Below are positions 14,627 to 52,237 of a DNA stretch of 64,000 nt, in pieces. Position numbers and translations under genes: made by a program. The notes beneath the pieces are model-generated. The model saw only the letters and a list, made by a program, of their open reading frames with translations, searched no databases and was not told the DNA's origin. Position 1 is the stretch's first letter, and each line of letters opens with the position of its first letter. Source of the DNA: Spirochaetia bacterium (GTDB taxonomy: Bacteria > Spirochaetota > Spirochaetia > UBA9216); contig OY776510.1 of NCBI GenBank assembly GCA_963675665.1, positions 1,440,001-1,504,000 on the forward strand, in the 5' to 3' direction.

Positions 14627-14769
14627 GAATGATAAAATTGCTTCCATGCAATTTTATCATTTTGAAGTTGTGAAGCAAAAACTGGAGCGCAGTTTAAACT
14701 GCAACACAGTTTAGCTTTACAACTTCACCTGTTAAAAACCCGCATCCTTGCGGGAATGTTTTATAGGAG
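14627..14769 (+). mobile_element. Putative non-autonomous miniature element (MITE) with IS110-identical ends, inserted in an AGGAG site
   Basis: 14622-14637 (AGGAGGAATGATAAAA) equals IS110 left junction 49729-49744. 14759-14769 (TTTTATAGGAG) equals IS110 right junction 51105-51115. The interior consists of three hairpins. Confidence 0.75.
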
Positions 14770-49187: not shown

Positions 49188-49314
49188 CGGGCGGCTGCCC
49201 TGCGTTCCGCAGTCCACCGGGCTTTACGCTGCAACGGCCCGAACCCGGCTTTTTTTCCCGGCTACCTCCGGGCCGCCGGAAAGCCGGGGCCGTTTCCGCT
49301 GCAATCCCTGCCGC
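49188..49314 (+). ncRNA. Flavo-1-like structured RNA/repeat
   Basis: GGGCTTTACGCTGCAA-[GC-rich hairpin]-TTTCCGCTGCAATCCCT...CGC resembles the Flavo-1 motif of Bacteroidetes and spirochaetes, recognised by eye only. Confidence 0.6.
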
Positions 49315-49414
49315 GGGGGCTTAATAGTTAAATCGGATACCAATATGTATATTAGGTTTAACGTGTAAGGTAAAATAGCTTGACAAGTTGTATTGTTTGG
49401 CCGATAATGAATAT

Positions 49415-49723
49415 GTGGAAGCATATTTCAAAAACAAGGAATTGGAAAAGCTTTATACAACAAATAAAAGTAAGAAATACAAACTCGAACAACATGTAAT
49501 AAGTAACTTCTTTGAAGTTGTGGCTATTATCGCAGCCGCAAAGGATATCTATGATTTCAGGGAAAAACCGTCTTTGAATTTTAAAAAAATGAAAGGTTTT
49601 CAAAACAGGTACTCTTTCAGGATCGACAGAAAATACCGGCTTGAGACTGAAATTGAATGGGAGAATGAGAACAAGACGGTAGGAATTATCGGTATTGATG
49701 AAGTAAGTAATCATTACCAATGA
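49415..49723 (+). CDS. higB: HigB (RelE/ParE superfamily, killer-protein type) toxin
   Basis: FKNKELEKLY, PSLNFKKMKG, YSFRIDRKYRL and C-terminal SNHY. GTG start lies 6 nt after TTGACA-17-GATAAT. Confidence 0.85.
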   Translation: MEAYFKNKELEKLYTTNKSKKYKLEQHVISNFFEVVAIIAAAKDIYDFREKPSLNFKKMKGFQNRYSFRIDRKYRLETEIEWENENKTVGIIGIDEVSNHYQ

Positions 49724-49758
49724 TAATAAGGAGGAATGATAAAAAGTCTTCATGAGCT

Positions 49759-49911
49759 GGTGAATTGATATACTGCCTTAACTTTAATTGAGGCAGTAAG
49801 GTTACTGTTCGACATTTTTACTGGTCCGCGAGACCGTTTAGGAGATTGAAGAGCCGTAACCGAAACATTCAATGGTCTGCGAGACCGGATAGGAGAATGG
49901 AACAATTCACC
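49759..49911 (+). ncRNA. Putative IS110 bridge RNA
   Basis: Closing stem GGTGAATTG/CAATTCACC, 5' hairpin 49771-49798, and two GGTC-YGCGA-GACC-centred loops whose flanks match the target and donor sites. Confidence 0.75.
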
Positions 49912-49946
49912 GTATAGGCACTGCTTCAAACTATTGGAGATAGAAC

Positions 49947-51059
49947 ATGAAGATGAGTATTGGCGTGGATCTTCACAAAACGCAGTTTACAGTATGCCTT
50001 TTAAGTGAAGACCGAAAAATTGATCAATTGGGAATGTATCCGACCAGCGGAAATGGTTATGGAGCATTTCTGAAAATGCTGGATGAATATTGTGAAGAGG
50101 AATATGAGTTGAGAGCAGCGGTGGAAACAACCGGGAATGCCCGTTATTTCCGCAATAAACTGTTAAAGGCTGGAGTCGAAGTGGTTGTAGTGAATACTTT
50201 GAAATTCAAGGTAGTGAATGAATCTGTAAAAAAGACAGACAAACATGATGCACGCACCCTGGCGGAGTTTCTTGAGAAAGACATGCTGCCTGAATCGATA
50301 TTATGTTCCCAAGAGAGTGAGGATATTCGAAGGGTGCTGAAATCCAGGTCGATACTGGTAAAATCTGTTGTGTCGTTAAAGAACCAGGTGCATGGCTTAT
50401 TACTTGGTTATGGAATAGAGACCAAACGCGGACAGCTGCAGAGTAAAAAAGAAAGGCAGCGAATCCTGAACGGTCTCGAGGACCACGACTTTTACGGAAG
50501 CGCTGCCAAAACGGTAATACCGTTACTGGATATGATAGATAATCAGGCATCGCAAGTCAAGCAGCTTGAAAAGGTTTTGGCTGAGCTTGTGGAGGACGAT
50601 GAAGATGTTGAGCTTCTGCAGACAATACCAGGCGTGGGTCTAATAACAGCAGCAACAGTAAGAGCCTATACAGACGATATCGGCAGATATGATAGTGCGA
50701 AGAAATATGCAGCAAACGCCGGGCTTGTGCCATGGGTGCAGAACTCAAATATGACAATACATCATGGACATATAACAAAGCGTGGGCCTGTAGAACTGAG
50801 GACAGCCTTCGTACAGATGGTGATGGGAATGGTTCGTATGCAAAAGAAGACCGGGACGTACCGAATAATGACGAAGTATGCAGCGATGAAGAAGCAGAAA
50901 GGCTCGGGTAAGAGTGTAATAGCTGCCGCCCGCAAGATGAGCACTTTGGTATATACAATTTTAAAAACCAGAGAGCCGTTTGATCCGATGAAAATGGCTT
51001 TTAGAAAAGAATACAGGGAAATGCAGGCAGCAGCATGGGAAGCTGTAATGGTCGGTTGA
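49947..51059 (+). CDS. IS110 DEDD transposase (bridge recombinase)
   Basis: GVDLHK (D), AVETTG (E), KTDKHDA (D, D); C-terminal TIPGVG and GLVPWVQNS...GHITKRG with the catalytic Ser. Confidence 0.95.
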   Translation: MKMSIGVDLHKTQFTVCLLSEDRKIDQLGMYPTSGNGYGAFLKMLDEYCEEEYELRAAVETTGNARYFRNKLLKAGVEVVVVNTLKFKVVNESVKKTDKHDARTLAEFLEKDMLPESILCSQESEDIRRVLKSRSILVKSVVSLKNQVHGLLLGYGIETKRGQLQSKKERQRILNGLEDHDFYGSAAKTVIPLLDMIDNQASQVKQLEKVLAELVEDDEDVELLQTIPGVGLITAATVRAYTDDIGRYDSAKKYAANAGLVPWVQNSNMTIHHGHITKRGPVELRTAFVQMVMGMVRMQKKTGTYRIMTKYAAMKKQKGSGKSVIAAARKMSTLVYTILKTREPFDPMKMAFRKEYREMQAAAWEAVMVG

Positions 51060-51121
51060 TATCCGACTAGATCATAAGCTTATATTTTTAGCTTGTGGTT
51101 GACTTTTTATAGGAGAAAACG

Positions 51122-52237
51122 ATGGCAATGATCAGGGATTTAAAACCGGCAGTTTTGATTGGAGCCGGGGATATTATAAAAAGGGAACTTGAATATAACG
51201 GTTGGTCACAGGAAGATCTCGCAGAAATTACCGAGCTTTCAGGAAAAACAATCAGCCAGTTAATAAACAATAAACAACGGGTTACGGTTGAGACAGCAAA
51301 GCTGCTTTCTAATGCATTGGGCTCAAGTCCTGAATTCTGGCTGAATCTGGACAACAATTACAGGCTGCAGCTTGATGATGAAACCGATAAGGAATCAGCA
51401 GTAAAGACGAAGGCTGAAATTCGCAAGTATATGCCGGTTGCAGAAATCTGCAGGAAAGGCTGGTACTGCAGCGACAATACAGCTGAAGGATATAAGTCAG
51501 TATATAAAGATATCTGGAACCGGGATGATATTGATTTTTTTGTCTATGATAATCCGGATATCGAATATTGCGCGCGCAGGTCGAAAGAAGATGAGCAGTT
51601 CACGCAATACTACTCTCAGACCTGGGCGAGGATAGCAAAAAATCATGCAGAGAAAATTGATGTACCTGATTATAATCAGGCTCTGTTAAAAAAAATCTCC
51701 GAAACTCTATCCGAATACACAATTCAACCAAATGGAGTCAGGCGAATAATAAACGATTTAAATTCAGCAGGCGTCAAGGTTTTTGTTCAATCCCATCTAT
51801 CCAAAACATACCTTGACGGAGCCTGTTTCTTTGACGGAAAAAATCCGGTGATTGTTTATACCGCGCGATACGACAGGCTAGATAACTTCTGGTTTACGCT
51901 TGCTCATGAGATCGCCCATGTGCTTCTTCATTTATCTCCTGATAATGATAAATGTTTTCTGGATAATCTCGATTCTGAGAATACAACAAAAAAAGAAAAA
52001 GAGGCTGATGCAGATGCTGAAAAAATGCTGAAAATCAGGGAGATCCTGAAATTGGCAAAGCCGTACAGCAAATATCTTTCCGAAGCGAATCTTCGAAATA
52101 TTTCCGGACAACTGAAAATAGAAGTCTCGGTTATCCTGGGGGTTCTTCAACATCACGGAATAGTGGATTACAGGAAACTGAACAAGTTTAAAACAAAGGC
52201 AACACCTATCTTACCTGTGGAAATAATGATGGGATGA
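51122..52237 (+). CDS. higA: HigA antitoxin (Xre HTH) fused to an ImmA/IrrE-type zinc metallopeptidase domain
   Basis: WSQEDLAE HTH and SPEFWLNL, then RYDRLDNFWFTLAHEIAH (HExxH). Confidence 0.88.
   Translation: MAMIRDLKPAVLIGAGDIIKRELEYNGWSQEDLAEITELSGKTISQLINNKQRVTVETAKLLSNALGSSPEFWLNLDNNYRLQLDDETDKESAVKTKAEIRKYMPVAEICRKGWYCSDNTAEGYKSVYKDIWNRDDIDFFVYDNPDIEYCARRSKEDEQFTQYYSQTWARIAKNHAEKIDVPDYNQALLKKISETLSEYTIQPNGVRRIINDLNSAGVKVFVQSHLSKTYLDGACFFDGKNPVIVYTARYDRLDNFWFTLAHEIAHVLLHLSPDNDKCFLDNLDSENTTKKEKEADADAEKMLKIREILKLAKPYSKYLSEANLRNISGQLKIEVSVILGVLQHHGIVDYRKLNKFKTKATPILPVEIMMG

Follow-up and report, generated by a model that had tools for sequence, protein, structure and literature searches.

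The window analysed here comprises 64,000 nucleotides of contig OY776510.1 from a Spirochaetia bacterium (assembly GCA_963675665.1, positions 1,440,001 to 1,504,000 of the forward strand). It contains an insertion sequence (IS) in which the recombinase gene is preceded by a long non-coding left end with the features of a bridge RNA; the coordinates of all features are collected in Table 1. The recombinase matches the NCBIfam model NF033542 ('IS110 family RNA-guided transposase') with 216.8 bits at a cut-off of 140, and it combines an N-terminal DEDD RuvC-like domain with a C-terminal Tnp domain carrying the serine. Alignment to ISCro4 and IS621 placed the catalytic positions at D8, E60, D98, D101 and S267, and the residue following the catalytic serine is N, not G. 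Similarity to these two solved relatives is mainly found in the C-terminal domain (E ~1e-15). Plasmid matches carry 'IS110 family transposase' as their sole annotation, without IS names.

A scan of the genome (5.15 Mb, one contig) revealed 15 full copies of the element, which represent two alleles with a sole difference at position 51068 (T in seven copies including the one in the window, C in eight). Collapsed assembly contigs of public runs carry the C at this position. Comparison of the 15 copies set the element ends, since beyond these points the flanks have nothing in common but AGGAG: the left junctions read ...(T)T[AT][AT]AGGAG followed by GAATGATAAAAAG, the right junctions ...TTGACTTTTTATAGGAG followed by N5-7 and ATG. 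In the DNA contigs of four runs, all belonging to one study, the depth was ~230 over the element and 10-15 on the flanks, which agrees with multiple copies. At every left junction the host AGGAG precedes GA-ATG, where an open reading frame of 10 codons begins (ORF; ATG at 49736, stop at 49766-68); its start codon lies within the first five bases of the element, the right donor half (RD) GAATG. Translation of this ORF is doubtful because the spacing is only 2 nt.

Relatives were collected by a protein-guided scan with one genome per species, yielding 80 loci with 32-79% identity from Spirochaetota, Desulfobacterota (Syntrophales, Desulfobacterales), Lentisphaerota and others. Parsing by regular expressions gave 89 element copies in 46 families, and loci that did not fit were dropped (truncated copies, the Lentisphaeria group, L044, L051, L071 and L072). 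The comparisons below comprise 76 sites in 40 families for the left flank, 38 families for the donor loop, and 71 sites with 28 guides for the right flank. The right end TTGACTTTTTATAGGAG is kept in practically every locus for which a right end is available and, used as an exact pattern, matched at least 117 metagenome stretches. The genomes G001-G003 were screened for extra copies per guide, and none was found beyond those already in the set.

The 161-nt core of the left end (49755-49915) has a predicted folding energy of -56 kcal/mol, compared to -34.8 +/- 3.4 for shuffled sequences (z = -6.3, 0/200 shuffles as good). When a structure of 34 pairs was placed on 38 distinct related left ends, 93.5% of the cells were paired, compared to 88.2% for shuffles (0/500 reach the observed value) and 23-42% for slid registers. 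Compensatory changes occur in 13 of the 34 pairs. In the stem of the target-loop hairpin they turn GC to AU in four sequences and UA to CG in eight. The 5' hairpin varies in sequence and length among the relatives, and inspection of the alignment by eye indicates that the hairpin as such is retained. The alignment also contains conserved G-U pairs (columns 98-155, 112-138 and 175-190), which correspond to A-C mismatches on the opposite strand; according to this, the structure belongs to an RNA of the plus strand. The comparison with about 46 related families thus points to a left end that is a bridge RNA with readable loops.

An IS110-family recombinase preceded by a two-loop RNA had been proposed in a preliminary description of this DNA, and Pfam, NCBIfam and the covarying structure bear this out. 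Its positions for both element ends, the closing stem, the 5' hairpin and the motifs CATTTTT (49813-19), TTAGGAG (49838-44), CATTC (49866-70), ATAGGAG (49889-95) and GAATG (49895-99) are all exact, and covariation with flanks and ends agrees with its assignment of module 1 as target loop and module 2 as donor loop. The duplicated loop modules had been taken for a divergent trait; they correspond to the standard architecture of a target loop and a donor loop. In both loops AGGAG is followed by AATG, which was considered as a handshake guide; this appears less likely, as it does not follow changes of RD (L045 group). The AATG seems to fit better as part of CAT/ATG closing pairs, helix 4 being 89.5% paired.

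The donor loop 5' strand and the first five bases of the element form Watson-Crick pairs at 185 of 190 positions, compared to 165.8 in permuted combinations (0/20000, p<5e-5). An RD other than GAATG is present in nine families, five of which are fully compensated in the guide (GCACG/CGTGC three times, GCATG/CATGC and GAGTG/CACTC once each). By eye, L039 (GTATG/CATAC) and L071 (GCATG/CATGC) compensate as well, and L047 and L069 do not. In the compensated families the 3' strand of the RNA itself keeps one mismatch (4/5 pairs, G-U allowed). As the guide follows RD while the RNA 3' strand keeps a mismatch, RNA-DNA pairing is favoured over pairing of CATTC with GAATG inside the RNA. This addresses a caveat raised in the preliminary description, since the 5' strand follows GCACG, GCATG, GAGTG and GTATG. 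Covariation hence establishes the predicted reading of the right donor half by the donor loop 5' strand. The donor loop 3' strand (G)GATAGGAG is identical to the right end, which does not vary, with ATAGGAG being present in loop and right end of nearly all families. The donor loop consequently matches both element ends, RD by covariation and the left donor half by identity.

All 15 copies are located directly after xxAGGAG and 5-7 nt upstream of an ATG, in the same orientation as the downstream gene, and the spacing between right end and ATG is exactly 6 nt in 12 of them. The same site type is used by nine elements in a Syntrophales metagenome-assembled genome (MAG) and ten in an Oceanispirochaeta MAG, as well as by copies from Marispirochaeta, metagenomes and Lentisphaeria. 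Judged by the sites occupied, targeting of Shine-Dalgarno sequences holds across the whole clade.

The target loop 3' strand has the layout G-y(-8)-y(-7)-y(-6)-AGGAG-A. The guide of this genome is GTTTAGGAG, with flanks T(T/A)TAGGAG, that of the Syntrophales MAG GCAAAGGAG, with nine flanks of mostly xAAAGGAG, and that of the Oceanispirochaeta MAG GTACAGGAG, with flanks TACAGGAG ((T/A)ACAGGAG in 8/10). Over the 76 sites guide and left flank match 71 times at -6 (35.4 expected by permutation) and 55 times at -7 (31.5 expected). At the level of families the matches amount to 38/40 (-6) and 30/40 (-7) compared to 29.2 and 14.6 (0/20000 permutations, p<5e-5). Covariation at these two positions thereby demonstrates the predicted pairing of the target loop 3' strand with the left target half. 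Furthermore, occupancy of NNNAGGAG-N5-7-ATG sites in the element's own genome tracks the guide: TAT sites are occupied in 9/44 and TTT sites in 3/15 cases (20% jointly), ATA in 1/47, TAA in 1/30 and ATT in 1/18, and no insertion is found at TAC (0/50), TTC (0/50) and AAA (0/54). In L073 (about 1350-1400) the target loop 3' strand GACCGTGAAGGAG is tandemly duplicated.

We assign a probability of about 0.85 to the interpretation of the element as an RNA-guided insertion sequence that is active and belongs to the IS110/IS1111 superfamily; activity is suggested by the 15 copies, which are at most one base apart in 1382. The left end would encode a bridge RNA of ~155-190 nt in which a closing stem surrounds a 5' hairpin and two internal loops, with a GGTC-YNCGA-GACC hairpin on top of either loop. 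Loop 2, the donor loop, would read the element's joined ends, and the 3' strand of loop 1, the target loop, would read the host Shine-Dalgarno sequence. As in the analogous ISEc11, ISEc21 and IS621, excision may yield a circle. Its junction would join TTGACT-17 bp-TGnTAAAAA to a sigma-70-like promoter, assigned by eye, which may drive the RNA and the recombinase gene. Both parts of this putative promoter are kept in the clade: GATAAA(AA) at the left end in all parsed relatives, and TTGAC(T/A)T(T/A)TTATAGGAG in all relatives possessing a right end. An automatic promoter scan of the linear sequence detected no plus-strand site at the left end. Production of the RNA, its binding by the recombinase and serine-mediated strand exchange are extrapolated from IS621 and ISEc11. 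The junction would recombine with xxAGGAG-spacer-ATG inside the common GAG without target duplication, so that the element would end up between Shine-Dalgarno sequence and spacer plus start codon, in the orientation of the gene. The right end TTTTTATAGGAG would re-supply a Shine-Dalgarno sequence before the gene's own spacer, at native spacing.

Several results weigh against this interpretation. Rfam release 15 gave no match better than chance level in 49300-51500 (best E >= 6). Four of the nine families with a variant RD show one or two mismatches to their own guide, and as the left donor half is invariant, its pairing rests on identity and not on covariation. Position -8 of the target guide shows no covariation with the left flank (28/76 sites, 23.1 expected, n.s.; 8/40 families, 9.7 expected). 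In 9/15 sites of the genome the flank carries A at -7 and the guide U, which implies either tolerance of one mismatch or a different route of insertion. For the target loop 5' strand no convincing junction-anchored covariation with the right-flank positions n1-n12 was detected in any register. Moreover, the public runs listed with this sequence comprised DNA runs and no RNA run, and neither an empty site nor a circle junction was found in the contigs of the four DNA runs, which stem from one study and were searched as contigs only. The sole joint in these contigs, from 49766 to 51096 with six other letters in between, was rejected as a circle junction, as the contig runs through a miniature element elsewhere in the genome. 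In the search for empty sites, the downstream genes of the window copy and of the copy at 1297009 were without a close orthologous locus in 41 and 6 genomes, respectively; genomes of the same genus are only ~67% identical.

Table 1. Features of the insertion sequence and its insertion site in the window (roles in recombination and transcription are predicted)
Feature	Position	Strand	Remark
Insertion sequence, 1382 bp	49734..51115	+	Left non-coding end 213 nt, recombinase gene, right end 56 nt
Recombinase gene, 370 aa	49947..51059	+	Pfam PF01548 (9e-18), PF02371 (1e-17)
Putative bridge RNA core	49759..49911	+	Closing stem encloses 5' hairpin, target loop and donor loop
Closing stem GGTGAATTG / CAATTCACC	49759-67 / 49903-11	+	5 pairs with compensatory changes
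5' hairpin	49771..49798	+	11 pairs; predicted in both folds
Target loop 5' strand CATTTTTACT	49813..49822	+	CAT and 7 variable nt
Target-loop hairpin	49822..49836	+	Stem GGTC/GACC with loop CGCGA, closed by a T.G pair
Target loop 3' strand GTTTAGGAGA	49836..49845	+	Predicted left-target guide; identical to left flank top strand and core
Donor loop 5' strand CATTCAAT	49866..49873	+	First five bases predicted to pair with RD
Donor-loop hairpin	49873..49887	+	100% of cells paired; 3/5 pairs compensatory (17 and 14 sequences)
Donor loop 3' strand GGATAGGAGA	49887..49896	+	Identical to right end ATAGGAG
Left subterminal inverted repeat ATAAAAAGTC	49739..49748	+	10/10 pairs with 51101-51110
Right subterminal inverted repeat GACTTTTTAT	51101..51110	+	Partner of 49739-49748
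Right donor half (RD) GAATG	49734..49738	+	Predicted to be read by donor loop 5' strand
Left donor half and core, ATAGGAG	51109..51115	+	Candidate Shine-Dalgarno sequence of the downstream gene after insertion
-35-like hexamer TTGACT	51099..51104	+	17 bp from left-end TAAAAA if circular; spacing counted by eye
Extended -10-like TGn-TAAAAA	49737-49745	+	TG 49737-38, TAAAAA 49740-45; overlaps left repeat; by eye
Target-derived AGGAG (host Shine-Dalgarno)	49729..49733	+	At all 15 left junctions, variable bases upstream
Right target: spacer AAAACG and ATG of the HTH/M78-peptidase gene	51116..51124	+	
Hairpin inside recombinase gene	50472..50484	.	Minus-strand reading equals module-hairpin consensus

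The covariation of guides and flanks across homologues that the preliminary description had anticipated is thus present for the left flank (-6 and -7) and missing for the junction-anchored right flank. The match of CATTTTT to the right flank, which it had read as pairing, is 4/4 (AAAA) in the window copy only, and the right flanks of the 15 copies differ. We consider it an even chance that the RNA leaves the right half of the target unread. The ATG would then be found at 5-7 nt because the tolerated or available AGGAG sites are real Shine-Dalgarno sequences, and the seven variable bases of the 5' strand would drift or have another role. Elements with one common guide indeed have widely different right flanks, and selection would remove insertions into intragenic AGGAG. 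Nevertheless, CAT is present in every parsed element (C[AG]T was demanded by the regular expression) among 28 distinct versions of the 5' strand.

Anchored at the ATG, the bases x1, x2 and x3 complement positions -1, -2 and -3 in 31, 39 and 42 of 69 cases (z = 3.0, 2.4 and 2.9), with p = 0.03, 0.04 and 0.008 in guide-level permutations and a sum that beats 5000/5000. This signal is weak, and as off-diagonal z values reach 2.7, host base composition may contribute to it. For the two halves of the target this leaves covariation on the left and, on the right, the weak ATG-anchored signal next to no junction-anchored one. An ATG at 5-7 nt follows 23% of the free T[AT]TAGGAG sites in the genome and all occupied ones; occupancy is 12/59 with such an ATG and 0/156 without it (p = 8e-8). 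The exact 6-nt spacing is found at 12/15 occupied compared to 22/47 free sites (p = 0.009). These figures speak against an unread right half, but purifying selection against intragenic insertions could be behind much of the enrichment of ATG and spacing.

A more far-reaching proposal, which we regard as rather unlikely, treats the whole translation-initiation region as a two-part target. In addition to the 3' guide reading the Shine-Dalgarno sequence, the invariant CAU and the next three nucleotides of the 5' strand would read the start codon and the three nucleotides preceding it over a flexible ~6-nt spacer. The ~90 miniature elements of the genome (see below) would have turned into built-in 5'-leader modules of host genes, and the module-like hairpin within the recombinase gene would add a third element, in antisense, to which the recombinase binds. 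If this were true, we would be dealing with an RNA-guided transposon that seeks gene starts and replaces the ribosome-binding site that it occupies.

A further explanation concerns the mismatch at -7. Many insertions at TTATAGGAG might have been guided by a half-match of the donor loop to a donor-like left half, especially at right ends of miniature elements ending in TTTTATAGGAG. Nine of the 15 left flanks read TATAGGAG, which equals the element right end and the donor loop (GGATAGGAG) and is mismatched to the target loop at -7, and at least five copies are located directly beside a miniature element's right end. For IS621, insertion by half-match is reported in the available passages of a preprint (bioRxiv 10.64898/2026.08.31.748434). 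On the other hand, TATAGGAG and TTTAGGAG sites are equally occupied (9/44 and 3/15), and T at -8, which is contained in the target loop and not in the donor loop, is favoured (13/344 compared to 2/312 for A). In addition, the flanks in Oceanispirochaeta and Syntrophales follow the target loop and not the donor loop. While miniature right ends or an IS621-type half-match route may explain the nine TATAGGAG flanks, we consider it doubtful that many insertions arose in this way, and reading by the target loop 3' strand is preferred.

Direct recognition of AGGAG-containing DNA by the recombinase, with the left-end motifs being DNA binding sites or the leader of the transposase mRNA, is very improbable. 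The invariance of AGGAG and of the element ends across the clade would fit this view, but left-end bases next to AGGAG change with the flanks over 40 families, and changes in the element's first five bases are accompanied by changes in a left-end segment at a distance of 130 nt. Moreover, the stems stay paired via compensatory and G-U changes on one strand, and the family is RNA-guided by experiment, as stated in the available parts of PMC11208160 and PMC11187229.

The repeated AGGAG seems to represent a common core. The left copy deviates to TGGAG (T at -5) in 2/76 sites with AGGAG as the right copy, and the single locus L071 combines TTTAGAG (A at -4) on the left and a guide changed to GAGAG with ATAGGAG on the right. 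As left and right copies are not always identical, the repeat can be understood as common core instead of duplication, and as they differ at -5 and -4, the exchange should occur 3' of -4, within the last three bases GAG. A 5-bp target-site duplication from staggered cleavage has the least probability of all, since AGGAG does stand on both sides in 74/76 parsed sites but the copies differ as described and the right one is part of a 17-nt end that is kept in all relatives and matched by the donor loop.

According to the available sections of PMC11208160 and PMC11208158, the element shares many traits with IS110-type elements such as IS621. These are a DEDD and Tnp recombinase, an RNA encoded in a long left end that precedes the gene (213 nt compared to 56 nt on the right, the layout of the IS110 group), target and donor internal loops each predicted to read one strand per half-site, a common core without duplication, and a promoter split between both ends (here by eye). 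In contrast to IS621 as described there, the strand order is reversed in both loops and so departs from the order of IS110 proper: the long guide is located on the 3' strand and represents the top strand of left half and core, while the 5' strand is the predicted complement of the right half. Furthermore, the 5' donor guide ends before it reaches the core, the subterminal repeat measures 10 bp instead of 2-3 bp, and the target is a Shine-Dalgarno sequence instead of a repetitive extragenic palindromic (REP) element.

The order of guides, a complement of the top strand located 5' of a match to the bottom strand, corresponds to that of the IS1111-type seekRNA elements ISEc11 and ISKpn4 in the passages at hand of PMC11187229, which also mention a promoter formed at the circle junction (here by eye). 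The preliminary description had seen a divergent type in the 5' guide complementary to the right half-site; this order had already been published for IS1111-type seekRNAs in that article. The 10/10-bp subterminal repeat falls into the range of 7-17 bp given for IS1111 in PMC11208160, in the sections available. In IS1111 elements the non-coding region and RNA lie downstream of the transposase gene, unlike the upstream RNA found here; few members, e.g. ISMtsp17, have an upstream non-coding region (PMC11187229, same passages). Placed by layout and not by a recombinase tree, the element appears to combine IS1111-type site polarity and a 10-bp subterminal repeat with an IS110-type upstream RNA gene. 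The reversed guide order is not new, and the element adds a new variant to the RNA-guided recombinases discovered in recent years, without being a system of a new kind.

A similar target type is found for IS900, an IS110-family element of Mycobacterium avium subsp. paratuberculosis. Its motif CATGNNNNNNTCTCCTT, given in the accessible part of PMC8141618, is the reverse complement of AAGGAGA-N6-CATG, i.e. a Shine-Dalgarno sequence and start codon at 6-nt spacing. The host ribosome-binding site there serves the ORF hed, antisense to the transposase (PMC8141618, same part). As hed lies on the strand opposite the transposase, IS900 is oriented opposite to its target gene, unlike the element in the window. 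A literature search yielded no article in which a bridge-RNA element is described to target Shine-Dalgarno sequences. A single 2026 preprint pairs 'Shine-Dalgarno' with bridge RNA terms, and its available passages do not link them.

Distant relatives with 32-40% protein identity (L080-L095 on a Lentisphaeria chromosome, L077-L079, L086, L088) also adjoin xAAAGGAG and end in ATCATAGGAG followed by a spacer and ATG; their left end includes GGAAAGGAG and TATAGGAG segments. According to this, Shine-Dalgarno targeting appears to be old in the lineage. In L045 (about 2640-2700) and L103 two right-end motifs are located ~30 nt apart, representing a solo right-end remnant or a nested insertion.

The genome further contains miniature elements of about 110-145 bp (91 nhmmer matches, 62 near full length). 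These are located at the ribosome-binding site of many genes. Following AGGAG, they start with GAATGATAAAA, contain three internal hairpins and end with (T)TTTATAGGAG (TTTTATAGGAG) before a spacer and a start codon; by a rough count 43/76 of their right ends are followed by a start codon. One of them lies in the window (14627-14769), another at G000:C1:2400712-2400832, and tandem arrays are found at 2973045-2973373 (three) and 1652321-1652891 (five). At least five IS copies adjoin the right end of a miniature element. Probably, the miniature elements are non-autonomous partners of the IS in the window.

Within the recombinase gene, positions 50464-50485 form a 22-nt inverted repeat (91%) with 49822-49843, which comprises the target-loop hairpin and guide. 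The corresponding hairpin GNNC-TCGNR-GNNC has a perfect stem at the same codons in 29/41 families, with four compensatory stem variants that alter the encoded residues (GLxD, VLAA, VLVE, DLED). A role as guide-specific antisense partner of the target loop was considered and rejected, as the site stays TCA in the L018 subclade and the guides vary. The bases flanking this hairpin do not follow the guide.

The copy in the window separates an ORF for a HigB-like toxin (49388-49723; PF05015, 27.3 bits at a cut-off of 27) from an ORF with HTH_3 and M78-peptidase domains (51122-52237). These ORFs are likely a toxin-antitoxin-type pair that was split by the insertion, with the ribosome-binding site of the second gene being re-supplied.

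Bridge and seek RNAs are under development as programmable tools for DNA insertion, and their natural diversity defines the capabilities. The clade described here, with a fixed donor site and a target re-aimed via two or three guide bases beside an invariant AGGAG, represents a clean natural reprogramming series. Its combination of IS1111 polarity with IS110 gene order bears on the question how the RNA gene moved between the ends in evolution. Insertion at gene starts that spares the ribosome-binding site gives a transposon a means of being tolerated in operons. Finally, the abundant miniature elements suggest trans-mobilisation by an RNA-guided recombinase, with a possible influence on the leaders of ~90 genes.

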